A stretch of DNA of 16,000 nt from Neptuniibacter sp. QD29_5 (GCF_047778125.1 NZ_CP180556.1:2373231-2389230); one strand, 5' to 3'; numbered from the stretch's first letter, positions 3,733-12,305 are shown. The notes: generated from the letters alone by a model not told the origin. Translations and numbers: made by a program.

Positions 3733-4536
3733 TCAATGCGGGCCAAGTCTACGAGTAAGCGTATTTAATAATGGGTAATATTCTGGGTCGGATGAGATAT
3801 TATTGTGCCCAGCATGATCAAACTCATAGATAGTCGCTACATCATCGGAAAAACTGCTGAATAATTTCATCGTACTCTCTTCAGGTATCACAGCGTCCTC
3901 CCCTGCAAGTAGAATAGCGGTTTTTGATTTGACCGCAGGAGCATAGTGCCAAGATAAGTATTTATCTTTGAGTAACAACGATACAGGGAGTCCCCAATAG
4001 CGCTCACTCGCTACGTCCTCAATGCTACTGTAAGGCGTTATCAAGATAAGTTGCTTAGGAAATTTTTCAGCTGCCAATCGTGTAGCGATACCTGTTCCTA
4101 AGCTTCTCCCCATCAGCACCATTTCAGTATTACCCTTGGCAACGTGTTCATACAACACTAGAGCATCTTGATAAATGGGCTCTTCTCGTGGATAACCATC
4201 ACTACCATACCCCCTGTAATGCATGAGATATAAAGAGTGTTCAGGGAAAGTTTGCTTAAACTTAACTAGGCGTTGCGAAACATCTTCAGCATTACCCCCA
4301 AAATAGATAAGCGCTTTATCACTGTTCCTCTTTTCAAAAGTCACAACAGTATGACCCACTTCTGTCGGGATCAGCAGAGTATGCTCTTCACTATTAATTT
4401 TCCGTTCTTGAGGGAAATAGAGGAGGTTTTCTTGATTAAAGTAAAGAACTGCGCAAATCAGTATGTAACCAAAGCCACCTAAAAATAATAATTTTAAGAC
4501 TGCTTTTTTCATATTTTTAAACTCGTAATACGACAT
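3733..4536 (-). CDS. Alpha/beta hydrolase (BEM46/ABHD13-like), N-terminal membrane anchor
   Basis: It has an N-terminal TM helix, a LLYFPQ motif, the nucleophile elbow GRSLG, and a C-terminal DHAGHNN carrying the catalytic His. Neither ATG 4536 nor the internal ATG at 4512 (MKKAVLKLL...) has a clear SD, so the start is uncertain. Confidence 0.8.
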   Translation of the reverse strand: MSYYEFKNMKKAVLKLLFLGGFGYILICAVLYFNQENLLYFPQERKINSEEHTLLIPTEVGHTVVTFEKRNSDKALIYFGGNAEDVSQRLVKFKQTFPEHSLYLMHYRGYGSDGYPREEPIYQDALVLYEHVAKGNTEMVLMGRSLGTGIATRLAAEKFPKQLILITPYSSIEDVASERYWGLPVSLLLKDKYLSWHYAPAVKSKTAILLAGEDAVIPEESTMKLFSSFSDDVATIYEFDHAGHNNISSDPEYYPLLNTLTRRLGPH

Positions 4537-6740: not shown

Positions 6741-6890
6741 AGTAAATAGATCCCAAAATGCAATGATGTGATAGATAATTAATCAACGTAAGGGGCTTAC
6801 TGAATCTACGTAGCGAACATACTAACCGATCAATATAGGACTGCGCTAAGCCGCTATAAACTGGATTATTATGTTACGGCTATGGTGTAA

Positions 6891-6925
6891 CAAAAACGAA
6901 AAAAGGGAGATCACAGCGATCTCCC
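6891..6925 (-). terminator. Rho-independent terminator, read on the minus strand
   Basis: The minus strand reads gggagatc-gctgt-gatctccc followed by ttttttcgtttttg. It lies 187 nt downstream of the hmp stop and is the only convincing terminator between hmp and the next gene. Confidence 0.7.
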
Positions 6926-7111
6926 GAAACACGCTAAGAAGAACCTTAGCCTGAGGTGGGGATGAATAAAAATACCCGCCAGTTAACCCGCTCTACTTGA
7001 GGGAGATAGAGCGAGTTTCAGTTTTAACCGATCATGCTGATGCAAAGCGATGTGACATCATCAACACGACCGACTGGCAGCAAAACCCTGGCGAGCAGAA
7101 CTTTTTAGCTA

Positions 7112-8317
7112 TTACAGAGTTGAGCTTGGTCCAAACACTTCGTAGTGAAGCTGCTCTTCAGGAACATTTAAACCTGTTAACTGTTGATGGATAGCATGCA
7201 TAAATGGCAGTGGTCCACAGAAGAAGAAATCTGCATCAAGTGAACAGTACTGCTTAATTTTGTCAGCAGTAATATAGCCATGATGGTCATAATCTTTGCC
7301 TTTTTCTGCACCGTAAATATCTTCATAGAAAGTAGCAGTAGAAAGATTCGACAGATCATTTTTCAGCATGTTGATATGTCCACCAAATGCATGCACATCT
7401 TTGGAACGGGTACCGTGCAACCAGCTAATTTTTCGAGAATCTCGTTTTAAAATAAGCTCATTAAGCATACCTAATACGGGCGTGATACCCACACCTCCGC
7501 TAATCAGTACAACAGGCCTGTCATTGTCTTTTACAAAGAACTCACCACCAGGCATATGAACAGGAACGATATCCCCCTCTTCGACTTTGCTATGTAGATG
7601 ATTAGACACCAAACCATCCGGCGTATTTTCATCACCACTGGTTTCTGCTTTTACCGAAATGCGATACACATCTTCACTATGAGCGTCAGATAAACTGTAC
7701 TGACGGATCTCGGTAAACTCTAAATCGGGATCATTAATCTTCACGCTGATAAACTGACCCGCTTTATATTTAGGTAACGGCTTGTCATCTAAAGGGGCCA
7801 GATAGAAAGAGGTGATTTCGCTACTCTCTTTTACCTTCTTCACTACACTAAAGTTTTTAAATCCTAACCAGCCTTGGTTATCTTGCGAGCTGTCATACAG
7901 ATTAGCTTCCGCACCGATTAAGATACTGGCTAATAACTCATAAGCTTCAGCCCAAGCGTCGATCACTTCATTAGTGGCGATGTCCTCACCTAAGACTTCA
8001 CGAATCGCTTTTAGTAGATTCCGACCTACGATCGGGTAATGTTCTGGCTGAACATCCAAACTAAAGTGTTTAGCCGCAATACGGTGAACTTCTGGCCCAA
8101 TGGCTTCCAATTTATCTATATGCGCTGCATAAGAGAGAATCGATGATGCTAGCGTTGATTGCTGGCGACCGTTGGCTTGGCTCACCATGTTAAAAACATT
8201 TTTAAGCTCCGGATTTTCTTCAAATAACAGACCATAAAAGTGCTTGGTCAGGTCAGTACCTACTTCTTGAATAAGCGGAACAGTTGATTTCACGATGGCT
8301 ATTGATGTTGGGTTCAC
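7112..8317 (-). CDS. hmp: Flavohemoglobin / nitric oxide dioxygenase
   Basis: The protein is collinear with E. coli Hmp. The globin N-terminus is VKSTVPLIQEVG..LTKHFY...NPELKNVFNM. The FAD/NAD reductase half carries RQYSLS, LISGGVGITP and a C-terminal HYEVFGP. The start is GTG at 8317, 8 nt after SD AAGAGG. Confidence 0.95.
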   Translation of the reverse strand: MNPTSIAIVKSTVPLIQEVGTDLTKHFYGLLFEENPELKNVFNMVSQANGRQQSTLASSILSYAAHIDKLEAIGPEVHRIAAKHFSLDVQPEHYPIVGRNLLKAIREVLGEDIATNEVIDAWAEAYELLASILIGAEANLYDSSQDNQGWLGFKNFSVVKKVKESSEITSFYLAPLDDKPLPKYKAGQFISVKINDPDLEFTEIRQYSLSDAHSEDVYRISVKAETSGDENTPDGLVSNHLHSKVEEGDIVPVHMPGGEFFVKDNDRPVVLISGGVGITPVLGMLNELILKRDSRKISWLHGTRSKDVHAFGGHINMLKNDLSNLSTATFYEDIYGAEKGKDYDHHGYITADKIKQYCSLDADFFFCGPLPFMHAIHQQLTGLNVPEEQLHYEVFGPSSTL

Positions 8318-8342
8318 AACTAATACCTCTTTGCCGTCTCTT

Positions 8343-8365
8343 TAAATGTATTTTTAAAACATCTT
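8343..8365. promoter_or_regulatory. NsrR-type operator candidate (box 1), proximal to hmp
   Basis: The minus strand reads AAGATGTTTTA-A-AAATACATTTA. That matches 18/22 of the gammaproteobacterial NsrR 11-1-11 inverted repeat as I remember it (AAGATGyATTT-N-AAATrCATCTT). It lies 26-48 bp upstream of the hmp start and overlaps a candidate -10 (TAAGAT, 8361-8366 on the minus strand). Confidence 0.6.
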
Positions 8366-8379
8366 ATAGACGGATCATT

Positions 8380-8402
8380 AAGATGTAAATATGATACATG
8401 TT
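8380..8402. promoter_or_regulatory. NsrR-type operator candidate (box 2), distal to hmp
   Basis: AAGATGTAAAT-A-TGATACATGTT matches 17/22 of the same consensus. The ATGTA/TACAT cores are palindromic. It overlaps a candidate hmp -35 (TTTACA, 8384-8389 on the minus strand). Confidence 0.55.
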
Positions 8403-8599
8403 ATAAATTCAGGACGACTACAGACTTTATAGATAAAGATCTTTTAGATCAGATAGTTAACTGGATTATTTTTTTAACTTTAATAGTTCAAACACCCTAA
8501 GCATCTAAAGGCAAAGACTAAAAAAGGACAAATTTATCTACGGATGGAGCAGAAATCTCTTGCTCGAAAGAACATTACATTAACGAAGAGGATAGATTC

Positions 8600-9685
8600 T
8601 TGGATAATGACAACTGGGTTAAACCCACCCTTATAAGATCATCCATCATTGCCATTGTTGTAGGCACGCTACTCAACCTAATTAATCAGGGCGATCAATT
8701 CTTTGCTGGATACTATGTTAATTGGCTCAAAGTGAGCCTGACCTACTGCGTTCCCTTCTCGGTATCGCTATTTAGCAGCTGGTTAATCATCCGTAGTCGG
8801 CCAGAACTAAAATCTTGCCCAGAGGTAATAAACCATCAACACTTAGTTGGGAATGAACTGAACTCATTAACCGACTTTGCCCAAAAAGTGCTAAGCAACG
8901 CGACCAAGGTAAATAAAGCCTCCACTGAGCGACTCGCATTTTTACAGTCACTCTCCACCAGCATTAATTCCTCTATAAAAGAATTAAACGGTATCGGCCA
9001 AACGCTAGAAGGGAGTGAAAATGACCTTGGGGGGATTCAATCTAATTTCGGAAAACTGATGGATCAAACCTCACTACTCGGTAACGAAATCCATCAATTT
9101 TCCAATGCCTCGCAATCGCTAAAACATGAGATCGCGCAATTTTTAGCGTCCTTTGAAGGTATCTCCTCGCTGGCGTCTGCAATTACAACCACCTCAGAGC
9201 AAACTAACCTGCTTGCCCTGAATGCTGCTATTGAAGCAGCTCGAGCAGGAGAAGCAGGTAAAGGCTTTGCCGTAGTAGCTGATGAAGTAAAAGCGCTGGC
9301 ACAGCATTCGCGCGAAAATGCACAGGATATCGATCAGAATCTAGAAAACCTGAAACAACATGAGATCCGTCTTAAAGCTCAACTAGAACTGATCGAGCGC
9401 ACAGTAAATAACTCATTAAAAACCGTGAGTACAGGTACAGAGAATGGCATGTCTTCTTTAACCGATGAAACGCTATCTAAAATCGATACGTTGTTCAGCC
9501 ATATTCAAGCAATCAATGAACGCACCTCAGAAGAGCTAGAAAACTTCCAGGAGATCTCTCAACAATTTGAAGCGGTAATAGGCGATGCGCAAAAAGCAAT
9601 TGATGGCTCAGCAGCCAATATTACGTTTGGGGCATCGATGGTGGATCTGAGTTCGACGATGTCATCTAAGCTCAAGATCGCTTAG
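8600..9685 (+). CDS. Methyl-accepting chemotaxis protein with an NrtS-like (nitrate/nitrite transporter family) 2-TM N-terminal module
   Basis: The C-terminal two thirds is a canonical MCP signalling hairpin ([40 protein letters not shown]). The N-terminal 65 aa ([20 protein letters not shown]...[20 protein letters not shown]) resembles NrtS. There is no in-frame ATG near the 5' end. The start is TTG at 8600, 7 nt after SD GAGGA. Confidence 0.85.
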
Positions 9686-9698
9686 ATTGAAAGATAAC

Positions 9699-9741
9699 TT
9701 AATCTGACAGCGCACATAGAAGTTAGCGGCTGTCAGATTAA
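9699..9741. terminator. Hairpin between convergent MCP and cytochrome b562 genes, putative bidirectional terminator
   Basis: A perfect 13-bp inverted repeat, ttaatctgacagc (9699-9711) / gctgtcagattaa (9729-9741), has a 17-nt loop. The flanking T-tracts are poor. Confidence 0.5.
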
Positions 9742-9760
9742 ATTGGGGAGAAAATCAGCC

Positions 9761-10180
9761 TTAGTCGAAGATGCTAAGGAACAACTCCCACTTACTTGGC
9801 TTCGCCTTCTTATGATATTCCTTACGTAGCTCATCCACTGCTTCAAGCTGCTTCTGCACCTGCTTTAGGTTATCAGCCGTCGCAACTGGAATCCCATTTA
9901 CCAGTTGTTCTACTTTTTTCAGACCTTCAAGAGAGATCACTTTGCGCTCAGGTGAAAAGTCATAAGCCTGCGCGTTTTTCAGATGATCTTTGAAGATATC
10001 CATTCGTTGGTTAAAGCCCTCAGCCGAGCTACTCACCATCGCTTCTTTATACTGCAGACGCATCTCTTTCATAGTCTGTTTTAAAGTTAGCGGGTTACCT
10101 GCACTTACATACCCACTTGTTGTGAACATCACAGCAACTAACAAAGAACTAAATAACGTTTTAAAAGCAGAGAACTTCAT
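9761..10180 (-). CDS. cybC: Periplasmic cytochrome b562-family four-helix-bundle protein
   Basis: It has a Sec signal peptide (…TSGYVSA/GNP). The mature N-terminus LKQTMKEM parallels the E. coli b562 Met ligand region (DNMETL). The C-terminus LRKEYHKK parallels TRNAYHQKYR (His ligand). Length and helical character fit the family. Confidence 0.65.
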   Translation of the reverse strand: MKFSAFKTLFSSLLVAVMFTTSGYVSAGNPLTLKQTMKEMRLQYKEAMVSSSAEGFNQRMDIFKDHLKNAQAYDFSPERKVISLEGLKKVEQLVNGIPVATADNLKQVQKQLEAVDELRKEYHKKAKPSKWELFLSIFD

Positions 10181-10342
10181 AAAAAAATCAACCTACATAA
10201 CATCAAGATATTTACCGAGCAGGTAATATATCAGATCTGACGATTAGGCTGAATCAAAGCGTAGTCATGTTAAAGACGCTTAGAGATAGTGGGGCTTGAA
10301 TTGGATAAGAAAAATCCTGCGCCCATGCAAATATTATCTGGT

Positions 10343-10972
10343 TTAGTACAAGGTATTTTTAACCCTATCTTCGATGATCTCCTCTACCTTTTTTACCTCT
10401 TCGGCTGATTTAGACGGATCAATCTGTGCCATTAGAATCTTACCCAAGCTTGGCATGATATTCCGATCAACTATCGATTCTGGCTCCCATAATTTAGAAC
10501 GCGTAATCGCTTTAGCGCAGTGAAAGTAGATCTCTTTGATAGAGATAACGATAGCGGATTTCGGCAACTTACCTTGATACTCACAGCGCTCTAAAACAGA
10601 AGCATTCGTAATAATTTTGGCCGTGCCATTAACTCGAAGACATTCACTGAACCCCGGCACTAACACCAAAAGTCCAACATGAGGGTTCTGAATAATATTA
10701 CTTAAGCTATCTAAGCGATTGTTGCCGGGGCGATCTGGGAGAATAATCGTACTGTCATCCCAAATTTGAATAAAACCAGCATGATCTCCCCTCGGCGAGC
10801 AATCCATATTGCCTTGATTATCCGATGTAGCCAGCAACATAAAAGGCGATAACTCTATGAATTTCTGACTAAATTTATCGAGCTGAGTCTTTTGCTTTTT
10901 AATCACTAGCTCCATCGGAAGACCATATAACTCTCTAAGTTTTTCTACCGAATCGATCTGTTCTAATTCCAT
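10343..10972 (-). CDS. Pyridoxamine 5'-phosphate oxidase (PPOX)-class FMN-binding flavoprotein, MSMEG_1061-like subfamily
   Basis: The motifs SPFMLLATSD..G..DCSPRGD..GF, LPDRPGNNRLDSL.NI..NPHVGLL.LVPG and ECLRVNG.AKI are characteristic of this subfamily. A strong SD GGAGGG lies 5 nt before the ATG. Confidence 0.8.
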   Translation of the reverse strand: MELEQIDSVEKLRELYGLPMELVIKKQKTQLDKFSQKFIELSPFMLLATSDNQGNMDCSPRGDHAGFIQIWDDSTIILPDRPGNNRLDSLSNIIQNPHVGLLVLVPGFSECLRVNGTAKIITNASVLERCEYQGKLPKSAIVISIKEIYFHCAKAITRSKLWEPESIVDRNIMPSLGKILMAQIDPSKSAEEVKKVEEIIEDRVKNTLY

Positions 10973-11032
10973 AATTCCCTCCCCTTAATATCTGATTCAA
11001 ACAAGATAAACCGCTCATCTGCATCTTGATAG

Positions 11033-11061
11033 TTGACTAGAATACTATGGGATCATAACAT
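11033..11061 (+). promoter_or_regulatory. Candidate sigma-70 promoter for the CCGSCS micro-ORF
   Basis: TTGACT (11033-11038), a 17-nt spacer, then TAACAT (11056-11061). This is a by-eye match only. Confidence 0.3.
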
Positions 11062-11079
11062 GTAAAATAAATACATCTA
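11057..11079. promoter_or_regulatory. NsrR-type operator candidate (box 3), between the PPOX gene and the CCGSCS micro-ORF
   Basis: The minus strand reads TAGATGTATTT-A-TTTTACATGTT, matching 17/22 of the remembered NsrR consensus and 18/23 of box 2 at 8380-8402. It overlaps the candidate -10 and ends 21 nt before the micro-ORF ATG. Confidence 0.5.
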
Positions 11080-11100
11080 ATATTATATAAAGGTATTCCT

Positions 11101-11277
11101 ATGTCTTCTCTACTAAAAAGCTTGTTCAAGAAAGATAAAGACGTTGCTGAAACTGCAACAACAAAAGAAGCATCCGCTGTAGAAGTAGCAGCAAAAGGAG
11201 ATGGTAACAGTAAAGAATCGAATGAGAAGAAAGGTAAACACGGTCAACCAGGCGTATGCTGCGGATCATGCTCTTAA
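11101..11277 (+). CDS. 58-aa small protein with C-terminal HGxPGxCCGSCS motif (CCGSCS-motif family); absent from the ORF track
   Basis: My own translation is MSSLLKSLFKKDKDVAETATTKEASAVEVAAKGDGNSKESNEKKGKHGQPGVCCGSCS*. The ATG follows AAGG by 7 nt. The stop is followed 12 nt later by a perfect 12-bp hairpin. The ORF lies in an otherwise empty divergent intergenic region. Confidence 0.65.
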   Translation: MSSLLKSLFKKDKDVAETATTKEASAVEVAAKGDGNSKESNEKKGKHGQPGVCCGSCS

Positions 11278-11289
11278 CACTATGATAAC

Positions 11290-11322
11290 CTGTAACCTCG
11301 GTCCCCTTAGCCGAGGTTACAG
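11290..11322 (+). terminator. Perfect 12-bp hairpin after the micro-ORF, putative terminator without a U-tract
   Basis: ctgtaacctcgg (11290-11301) / ccgaggttacag (11311-11322) with a 9-nt loop. A second 9-bp hairpin follows at 11327-11358. Confidence 0.4.
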
Positions 11323-11453
11323 CCTACTCAGTGACATACTGCTTCTAAGGTCACTGAGCAAAAAATCACAATTACAAGGACGATGCTATTGCCCTCTAAC
11401 CTAAACAAGAGGGATTTGTATACAGGTAGCAGCGCTGTAAACCTTGCTTTACC

Positions 11454-12305
11454 TCAGCCTCCCAACAACACGCGAGTTAAGATCGATTTACGATAAAGGT
11501 GTTCTGGAATTTGATGCTCAATCTTAGCATGCAGTTCCGGTAGCCTTGACCAGTGAACCCCCTGCTTGTGATGGTGAGCGGTATGGTAACCAAGGTTACC
11601 AGTCAAGCGGTTAAACAGTGGATTCAAATTATTATAGGAAGCTTCAAACTCATTCTCTGTATCTAAACCAGAGTGATGTTCATAAGTCACATAGGAGGTA
11701 AACAGCAAGCTTGTAATCATAGGCAATACAAACAACAGCAACCCTGCAACAGGATTAAACCAAACCAATACAGCAACGATTGCGAAGGTAATTGCTGTAT
11801 AGGTTAAAAAGGTAGACAGCTGCTTAGGGTGCTTTTTGCCCACCTGGTAACCGCGACTATAGGCCGTTAAAGCAACATTTAATGTGTACTCAATAGCCCC
11901 CATCTGCTTACCATCTTTACGCTTCCAACGACTTTCATCTTTCTCTTGATCAAGGAAGTTAAGGTGATGGCCTAGGACATGGTGCAAACGCCATAAATGC
12001 GTCGTTACCCCAGTATGCAAAGCATAAACAAATTCTAATACGCGATTTAGAAAGTTATTTCTAAAAGTGAAAAGATGCTGGTGGTGATGATTCCACGCAC
12101 AGATCACTCCTTTTGGAATGATCATCAATAGATAATAAAGCGTCAGTACAACAGGGTCACTCACTGTAAAGTAAAGTACAAAATCAACTACAGTAAGGCT
12201 CAAGATAATCAACACTGGCAAACAGTCTTCTTTATACCTAAACCCGAGTAAACCACCATCTTTCATGAGAGATATCGCACCGAACAAAAATTGGCTGACA
12301 AACAT
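11454..12305 (-). CDS. Membrane fatty-acid desaturase/hydroxylase superfamily protein (di-iron, three His boxes)
   Basis: His boxes are HHHQH (HxxxH), HRLHH (HxxHH, followed by GHH) and HTAHHH (HxxHH). They are arranged around about four TM helices. No SD precedes ATG 12305, so the start is uncertain. Confidence 0.75.
   Translation of the reverse strand: MFVSQFLFGAISLMKDGGLLGFRYKEDCLPVLIILSLTVVDFVLYFTVSDPVVLTLYYLLMIIPKGVICAWNHHHQHLFTFRNNFLNRVLEFVYALHTGVTTHLWRLHHVLGHHLNFLDQEKDESRWKRKDGKQMGAIEYTLNVALTAYSRGYQVGKKHPKQLSTFLTYTAITFAIVAVLVWFNPVAGLLLFVLPMITSLLFTSYVTYEHHSGLDTENEFEASYNNLNPLFNRLTGNLGYHTAHHHKQGVHWSRLPELHAKIEHQIPEHLYRKSILTRVLLGG

Follow-up and report, generated by a model that had tools for sequence, protein, structure and literature searches.

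The hmp gene of E. coli has a single NsrR site, and enterobacteria also possess small NsrR-controlled proteins of unknown function, such as YgbA and YoaG (the latter from the yeaR-yoaG operon), for which membership of the NsrR regulon is, to our knowledge, the only functional lead. The core of the gammaproteobacterial NsrR regulon comprises hmp, nnrS, dnrN/ytfE and hcp-hcr, and lineage-specific members include aox in V. fischeri, tehB, and glbN in Legionella; the published operator consensus is gATGyAT-N5-ATrCATc, ATTCAT is its half-site variant in Neisseria, and in B. subtilis tandem NsrR sites lie over the hmp promoter (Rodionov et al. 2005, PMC1274295). Here, we have analyzed a stretch of 16,000 nucleotides (nt) from the 3.5-Mb genome (44% GC) of Neptuniibacter sp. 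QD29_5 (NZ_CP180556.1, C1:2373231-2389230; hereafter the window), whose nearest named relatives are Neptuniibacter sp. QD57_21, QD48_55, PT8_73, QD37_6 and SY11_33. Positions 7112-11277 of the window had originally been predicted to form a compact nitrosative-stress locus delimited by NsrR-like boxes (boxes 1-3) and comprising five genes, namely hmp, a chemoreceptor gene (NrtS-MCP; MCP, methyl-accepting chemotaxis protein), a cytochrome b562-like gene, a PPOX gene and a gene for a Cys-cluster peptide of the CCGSCS family. An open reading frame (ORF) listing and profile searches placed all five genes where they had been described.

Our results suggest, with a probability of roughly 75%, that this region holds two separate NsrR-controlled promoter regions, those of hmp and of the CCGSCS gene, and that the b562-like and NrtS-MCP genes are probably bystanders. 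The proposed regulon of hmp and four further genes is thus retained for hmp and CCGSCS, lost for b562 and the chemoreceptor, and narrowed for PPOX to a clade-specific co-target at best; likewise, the operators mark two promoter regions and do not delimit a single module. Lineage-specific additions to NsrR regulons are expected, and the compact locus is ordinary and largely an accident of gene neighborhood. What is new is a functional lead for the uncharacterized CCGSCS family, in which an NsrR-type operator appears to be built into the promoter wherever we looked (nine genera).

Boxes 1-3 are 23-bp palindromes (11-1-11) and are confined, as had been claimed, to the only two divergent intergenic regions of 7112-11277. 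A first matrix, derived from the three boxes in both orientations and scanned over the whole genome, recovered nine more sites with scores of 21.9 bits or above, each of them intergenic. The rebuilt 12-site matrix yields 12 sites of at least 25 bits, with the next candidate at 19.7 bits and leave-one-out scores of 21-30 bits for the 12 sites, and it finds no match of 18 bits or more in a first-order Markov genome of equal size; elsewhere in the window, no weaker box exceeds 8.2 bits. All 12 sites are inverted repeats, and their consensus, AAGATGTATTTAAAATACATCTT, is that of the published NsrR operator. The nine outside sites adjoin nnrS (PF05940, 367 bits), a cytochrome P460 gene, three HHE/hemerythrin-type genes (one of which is followed by an EAL phosphodiesterase gene), a cytochrome c-CuA-COX1-like operon (two sites), an FNR-like reductase gene and a LysR regulator gene. 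The identity of the consensus, the nitric oxide (NO)-related neighbors and the genome-wide rarity bear out the description of the boxes as NsrR-like, and, judged from sequence, the motif is a genuine NsrR-type operator of an NO-related regulon of roughly ten operons. The composition of this putative Neptuniibacter regulon now includes hmp, nnrS, cytochrome P460, hemerythrins and a heme-copper-oxidase-like operon. Its likenesses to the described regulon (PMC1274295) are the operator consensus, hmp and nnrS as targets, the presence of lineage-specific recruits and the location of sites 30-130 bp upstream of start codons.

The center of box 3 lies 33 nt from the ATG of the CCGSCS gene and 96 nt from that of PPOX (the box itself precedes the PPOX ATG by 85-107 bp, which agrees with the original prediction). 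The CCGSCS gene would be read from a sigma-70 promoter, TTGACT-17-TAACAT, whose -10 element is fused to the left half-site of the box. Across the 12 sites, a good -35 element at 16-18 nt from an operator-embedded -10 element occurs only toward the NO-related gene, which is CCGSCS for box 3 and hmp for box 1. Box 3 is therefore best described as a predicted operator that would mainly serve the CCGSCS promoter and may serve PPOX as well. All three boxes are kept in five sister genomes, the copy of box 3 in QD57_21 having TGCAT for TACAT in the right half-site and still fitting TrCAT.

Support from more distant organisms required a search for the family, which is absent from the searchable literature. 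A class-wide sample of 400 genomes gave no match, a single-sequence word search found near relatives only, and phmmer against 1.84 billion representatives returned seven matches; an order-wide sample produced one Marinobacter match that opened the family, and a subsequent profile search led to 184 clusters and added Photobacterium, Aliivibrio, Vibrio, Shewanella, Halomonas and Billgrantia. The genes encode 53-62 amino acids. The N-terminus of the proteins is LKxLFKKD-like, the middle is acidic, variable and rich in Ala, Glu and Lys, and the end, KHG...CCG(S/G)CS, is invariant; the product in the window ends in KHGQPGVCCGSCS directly before the stop codon and thus carries the C-terminal CCGSCS that characterizes TIGR04101. 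The gene is present in 31 of 129 sampled Marinobacter genomes and also in a sister genus. The locus-wide best match of the Neptuniibacter matrix lies approximately 36-50 nt upstream of the CCGSCS start in 28 of 30 Marinobacter loci, a count that overstates independence because these loci are mutually related. When 27 unique sequences were anchored on the operator, information peaked only at a TTGAC(T/C) -35 element, at (T)AAsAT, which serves as both -10 element and left half-site, and at the right half-site, the flanks being random; this TTGAC-17-TAAsAT design was present in 26 Marinobacter loci. The neighboring genes there vary (GGDEF, MFS, PhyH-like, flavin reductase and PCuAC) and include no PPOX gene.

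For each of the other six genera, one locus of 5-6 kb was scanned, and its best site lies directly upstream of the CCGSCS gene (Table 1). The TTGAC/TTGAT-17-TAAsAT design recurs in four of the six (Billgrantia, Halomonas, Shewanella and Aliivibrio). CCGSCS neighbors differ everywhere, and a PPOX gene never stands beside CCGSCS outside the Neptuniibacter clade. Because the operator is kept upstream of CCGSCS across genera while the neighbors vary, and because PPOX orthologues lack the box, CCGSCS is regarded as the constant partner of box 3. The relationship also works in reverse: a matrix built from Marinobacter CCGSCS sites only places the Neptuniibacter operators of the heme-copper-oxidase-like operon, P460, hemerythrin, nnrS and hmp, together with box 3, among the top 13 sites of the genome, and it also picks up sites ahead of the main nnrS copy in those Marinobacter genomes that were tested. 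The promoter-operator-CCGSCS unit, conserved in at least nine genera (the sister genus of Marinobacter included) and five families of Gammaproteobacteria, appears to be ancestral to the TIGR04101 family, in agreement with the proposal that the Cys-cluster peptide joins the NsrR regulon.

Table 1. Best predicted operator sites at CCGSCS loci of six further genera (scores in bits)
Genus	Neptuniibacter matrix	Marinobacter matrix	Next-best site (Neptuniibacter matrix)	Site center to ATG (nt)
Photobacterium	24.0	25.0	4.3	79
Billgrantia	16.7	21.8	-6.9	40
Shewanella	12.1	22.2	3.2 (overlapping register)	38
Vibrio	15.8	21.4	12.5 (overlapping register)	92
Aliivibrio	21.7	29.4	1.0	33
Halomonas	11.8	20.2	-3.4	38

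The NsrR site table of PMC1274295 (supplement file 6; the supplement labeled Table S4 lists DNR sites) covers Vibrio, Photobacterium and Shewanella and, unlike the set described here, contains no CCGSCS, PPOX, b562, cytochrome P460 or hemerythrin genes. A further difference is that CCGSCS would behave as a constant regulon member wherever the family occurs. Like YgbA and YoaG, CCGSCS is a short uncharacterized product with presumed membership of the NsrR regulon as its sole functional lead; its invariant C-terminal tail and its LFKKD-like N-terminus are distinctive.

With regard to hmp, the predicted promoter is TTTACA-17-TAAGAT, and the gene appears to have tandem operators over the -35 element and over the -10 element and start site (Table 2). 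Boxes 1 and 2 are located 37 and 74 nt from the hmp start, with their centers 37 bp apart, and the box-proximal half of the hmp-MCP spacer is its conserved half. The arrangement resembles that of B. subtilis hmp, i.e., the classical layout for steric repression, here with a predicted promoter. In the genus, hmp is patchy (10 of 23 genomes), and copies from outside the clade share only 59% identity and belong to a different, single-box operon. In three such loci (L065-L067, from species G009, G004 and G006), a 127-amino-acid ORF of unknown family precedes hmp, and a single NsrR-like box of 13.6-16.9 bits, weaker than those in the window, lies upstream of this ORF.

Table 2. Features of the hmp-CCGSCS region, in window coordinates
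Feature	Position	Strand	Details
hmp, NO-inducible flavohemoprotein	7112-8317	-	NF009805 506 bits (cut-off 432); Globin, FAD_binding_6 and NAD_binding_1 domains
NsrR-type box 1	8343-8365		25.0-27.5 bits; over predicted hmp -10 (TAAGAT, 8361-8366, minus strand) and predicted start site
NsrR-type box 2	8380-8402		24.1-26.1 bits; over predicted hmp -35 (TTTACA, 8384-8389, minus strand)
NrtS-like two-helix membrane module + MCP signaling domain	8600-9685	+	PF00015 101.7 bits; NF038050 28.4 bits
Hairpin between convergent MCP and b562 genes, likely bidirectional terminator	9700-9740		-24.6 and -26.6 kcal/mol; z-scores -3.7 and -5.7
Periplasmic cytochrome b562-like protein	9761-10180	-	PF07361 47.6 bits (cut-off 30); signal peptide in translation
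Extended -10 element of predicted b562 promoter	10225-10233	-	TGATATATT; conserved element
PPOX-type split-barrel protein	10343-10972	-	TIGR04025 (MSMEG_1061/DR2398) 261 bits (cut-off 170)
Predicted CCGSCS promoter	11033-11061	+	-35 TTGACT, 11033-11038; 17-nt spacer; -10 TAACAT, 11056-11061, fused to left edge of box 3
NsrR-type box 3	11057-11079		26.2 bits with matrix of the nine sites outside the window
CCGSCS motif micro-protein, 58 amino acids	11101-11277	+	TIGR04101 50.4 bits (cut-off 28)
Hairpin after CCGSCS gene	11290-11322	+	-25.3 kcal/mol; z-score -6.25; right edge of conserved block

In the proposed mechanism, NsrR holding its [4Fe-4S] cluster would cover the -10 and -35 elements of hmp when bound to boxes 1 and 2, and on box 3, over the -10 element and start site of CCGSCS and possibly the -35 element of PPOX, it would block RNA polymerase. 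NO would then nitrosylate the cluster, NsrR would leave the DNA and transcription would start. NO-inducible expression of CCGSCS is a directly testable prediction of this scheme.

Besides the relatedness of the Marinobacter loci, several observations weigh against the interpretation of two NsrR-controlled promoter regions. Across the five sister genomes, identity is 95% over the entire PPOX-CCGSCS spacer, so that footprinting is uninformative. A promoter consensus scan of the region gave eight matches with 7.2 expected by chance, and the promoters and start sites are predictions. In Photobacterium and Vibrio, the site center is 79-92 nt from the ATG and not at approximately 35 nt. No operator was found at one family member that scores above the cut-off and has the tail CCGACGGR (G578, L079), nor at two sub-threshold CCGSCS-like peptides (L080 and L081, from Neptuniibacter species G012 and G015). 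The candidate regulator scores 125 bits on the NCBIfam NsrR model, for which the equivalog cut-off is 182, and might thus be another Rrf2-type sensor. Finally, PPOX transcripts may read through into b562, as no strong terminator could be demonstrated between the two genes. As regards the operator-less peptides, those of L080 and L081 are shorter, end in ...ERP(S/T)VCCGSCS and are encoded beside a PEP-utilising-enzyme-like gene, and all three (L079-L081) may represent distinct subfamilies.

The best surviving alternative, although quite improbable, is that all five genes from hmp to CCGSCS constitute one compact NsrR-controlled nitrosative-stress locus. DNA comparison with the five sister species shows that 6890-11326 is a block inherited as a unit, with approximately 94% nucleotide identity and all three boxes, which favors such a locus, as do the lack of a strong terminator before b562, a plus-strand promoter-like match that overlaps box 2 and the presence of a second NsrR site, at P460, that is also divergent from an MCP gene. 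Against it, the array is limited to six near-identical species: the five-gene order was not found beyond them, and orthologues of PPOX, b562, MCP and hmp in other species and genera are dispersed, all except those of hmp being without a box. The original prediction had listed a lack of conserved gene order, with boxes absent from orthologous regions, among the results that would speak against it, and this is in part what the relatives show. The edges of the block are the terminator hairpins of hmp and CCGSCS, and DNA matches to the sister genomes stop at 11326. Because the gene order occurs only in the six-species clade and the flanks vary, the array is not a conserved functional module; it is a young, clade-specific juxtaposition in which an hmp-MCP pair and a PPOX/CCGSCS pair flank a resident b562 gene. 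Adjoining the block, the segment 4549-6895, with an orphan sigma-70-family gene and a DUF3429 gene, is a variable insertion: one sister genome (G017) has approximately 280 bp in its place, and a second (G016) carries it in rearranged form.

The chemoreceptor gene contributes to this picture. Its start is 209-246 bp away from boxes 1 and 2, conservation is poor in the MCP-proximal half of the spacer, and among the full-length NrtS-MCP orthologues (44-58% identity) from two other genera of the family, none has hmp within 1.5 kb or a site above 7.5 bits. The gene has no proximal operator, and its membership of the regulon, once proposed, is doubtful. A cytochrome P460 gene (PF16694; C1:2356029, L007:3030), approximately 17 kb to the left of the window, has a 28.5-bit NsrR-type box 57 nt upstream and is divergent from a gene for a 664-amino-acid MCP, the second MCP gene opposite a predicted NsrR target. 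We considered an enrichment of MCP genes beside NsrR sites (two of approximately ten regions) and rejected it, as the genome encodes 34 MCPs, whose genes cluster around here on the chromosome, and in neither case is a box within 200 bp of the MCP start.

The b562-like gene fits a single locus even less well. Like E. coli cytochrome b562 (CybC), its product has a whole-domain PF07361 match, the C-terminal His of YHKK and a signal peptide, but it differs from CybC in scoring far below the NCBIfam equivalog cut-off (21.9 vs 130 bits). The His of YHKK aligns with the heme-ligand region of a solved b562 structure (4ER9); the putative Met ligand was placed from Pfam profile coordinates only. Orthologues (57-72% identity) are found in at least ten other Neptuniibacter species, in other neighborhoods, and no box above 10.4 bits was detected at the orthologues of ten other species, the highest ones checked lying inside the b562 coding sequence. 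Two orthologue loci are near a homologue of the window gene at 3733-4536 and two near homologues of the LysR/flavodoxin-like pair of the window; because orthologue loci thus share homologues of window neighbors, b562 is suggested to be the resident gene of this place. In each of the 11 b562 loci, an extended -10 element, CAGATCTGgTATATT (TGnTATATT), precedes the ATG by approximately 47 nt; within the six-species clade it is invariant. Since this element is kept at the same distance while the upstream genes and the sequence further upstream differ, b562 is predicted to have its own promoter without an operator. We consider its membership of the regulon improbable, given the genus-wide promoter and the lack of a box in the ten other species. 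In the searchable literature, nothing was found linking b562 to NO, or linking NsrR to b562, PPOX, or Neptuniibacter or Marinobacter targets.

The PPOX-b562 spacer (10181-10300, minus strand) folds strongly (-28.2 kcal/mol, z-score -3.4), forming a long hairpin whose terminal U7 immediately precedes the b562 ATG. A role as regulatory leader was rejected, as the 5' arm is b562 promoter DNA (with the extended -10 element), whose conservation has another cause, and relatives outside the clade do not share the fold; at most, the hairpin might terminate PPOX transcripts while overlapping the promoter of b562. No Rfam family matched within 8000-11600, even at E-values up to 1.

Very unlikely, too, is the alternative of a different regulator binding to the palindromes in place of NsrR, either another Rrf2-type protein or an unrelated repressor, with a signal that is not NO. 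The genome encodes two strong Rrf2 proteins, IscR (beside iscS) and an NsrR-like one (L010:2754-3185, minus strand), whose best solved match is Streptomyces NsrR (ScNsrR, 5N07) with all three cluster cysteines aligned. The latter remains below the equivalog cut-off, as do its counterparts in all five other genomes tested (four Marinobacter and one sister genus; 136-143 bits), which lack hmp, and it also reaches 102 bits on the RirA model; moreover, the Marinobacter half-sites are ATTCAT rather than ATGyAT. These points would favor a different regulator, but the consensus is identical to the published NsrR motif, ATTCAT is the published Neisseria variant, the targets are hallmark NO genes (hmp, nnrS, P460 and hemerythrins), and the only other strong Rrf2 candidate is IscR. 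The name NsrR-type operator is therefore considered appropriate, with the caveat of the sub-threshold score of the presumptive regulator. The NsrR-like gene converges on a gene with an HHE/hemerythrin domain, with a 4-bp overlap (L010:2203-3245, C1:1709202-1710244); the hemerythrin gene has two NsrR-type boxes, and none was seen upstream of the regulator gene itself.

It is extremely unlikely that box 3 primarily controls PPOX and that CCGSCS is incidental. A weak predicted PPOX promoter, TTTACA-16-TATTCT (9 of 12 positions matching), has its -35 element (11061-11066) inside box 3, and the 96-bp distance from box to ATG is within the range of other targets in the genome. On the other hand, the promoter with the operator-embedded -10 element faces CCGSCS only, the operator is kept at CCGSCS genes in at least nine genera and never beside PPOX, and the orthologues of PPOX outside the clade have no box. 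These orthologues (62-75% identity) were found in Amphritea atlantica, a Neptunomonas metagenome-assembled genome (MAG), two Pseudomonadales MAGs, Marinagarivorans and metagenomic contigs, with more distant ones in three other genomes. In 12 loci of other genera, PPOX has no link to NsrR or hmp, no NO genes nearby and unrelated neighbors, and no site at the orthologues exceeds 5.6 bits with the 12-site matrix or 10.6 bits with the three-box matrix. Box 3 is still more certainly not a functionless chance palindrome, since only 0.0016 matches as good are expected by chance in all intergenic DNA, no simulated match attains 18 bits, and the operator-promoter unit precedes CCGSCS genes in eight other genera, even if the spacer is AT-rich and its conservation in sister genomes is uninformative.

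A subordinate role for PPOX under the CCGSCS operator deserves separate mention. Because the weak predicted -35 element lies inside box 3, PPOX may be co-repressed through this box, at most as a clade-specific co-target; we regard this as a serious possibility, if slightly the less probable outcome. The link between PPOX and box 3 drawn earlier accordingly stands as far as the divergent position is concerned and is not mirrored at the orthologues. The model of the protein (predicted local distance difference test score of 84.8) is an FMN-type split barrel with extra helices, and its top Foldseek matches are HupZ and FMN-binding split barrels (E-values of 1e-9 to 1e-6), so that fold and TIGR04025 hidden Markov model agree. 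A search of the PDB at E-values up to 1e-3 gave no sequence relatives, and the fold search points to a generic split barrel only. The cofactor might be FMN, heme or F420, because the best structural neighbors include heme-binding HupZ as well as FMN and F420 binders.

In four orthologue loci (L050-L053, from A. atlantica, the Neptunomonas MAG and the two Pseudomonadales MAGs), the PPOX gene sits among many small ORFs and is bracketed by attC-like repeats ending in G(C/T)GTTATG(G/C)C, spaced by approximately 700 bp in L053. Such an integron-cassette pattern would explain the patchy distribution of the gene, and a mobile PPOX gene may have landed back-to-back with the CCGSCS promoter in one Neptuniibacter clade.

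As to what the CCGSCS peptide does, our best guess is a thiol- or metal-based buffer of nitrosative damage. The operator data make a tiny peptide with a Cys tail a candidate participant in nitrosative-stress chemistry, in bacteria that are convenient to work with (Shewanella, Vibrio and Marinobacter). A more specific proposal, which we consider tentative and on balance rather unlikely, is that the family is a dedicated NO-stress effector derepressed from NsrR, whose invariant C-terminal KHG...CCGSCS tail would act as an acceptor of nitrosyl groups or as a ligand for Cu(I), iron-sulfur fragments or iron-nitrosyl species and would in this way buffer or repair nitrosative damage; that PPOX is additionally wired to the operator in the Neptuniibacter clade is a secondary possibility. 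If this were true, loss of the gene should lead to NO sensitivity or an Fe-S-repair phenotype in Marinobacter, Shewanella, Vibrionaceae and Neptuniibacter.

Some additional observations concern genes next to other predicted operators. A GGDEF diguanylate cyclase gene adjoins the CCG(G/S)CS gene in 14 Marinobacter loci (L109-L117, L121, L122, L124, L128, L131 and L132 listed) and is divergent where checked, and the operator in those loci might also touch cyclic di-GMP signaling. In QD29_5, the operon at C1:150144-152629 (L005:645-3130), which has two top-scoring NsrR-type boxes upstream, encodes a c-type cytochrome of 105 amino acids, a CuA-type subunit II-like protein of 172 amino acids and a very divergent COX1-family subunit of 484 amino acids that scores 177 bits on PF00115 and only 64 bits on CtaD; on these features, it is a candidate for a non-canonical heme-copper NO reductase.

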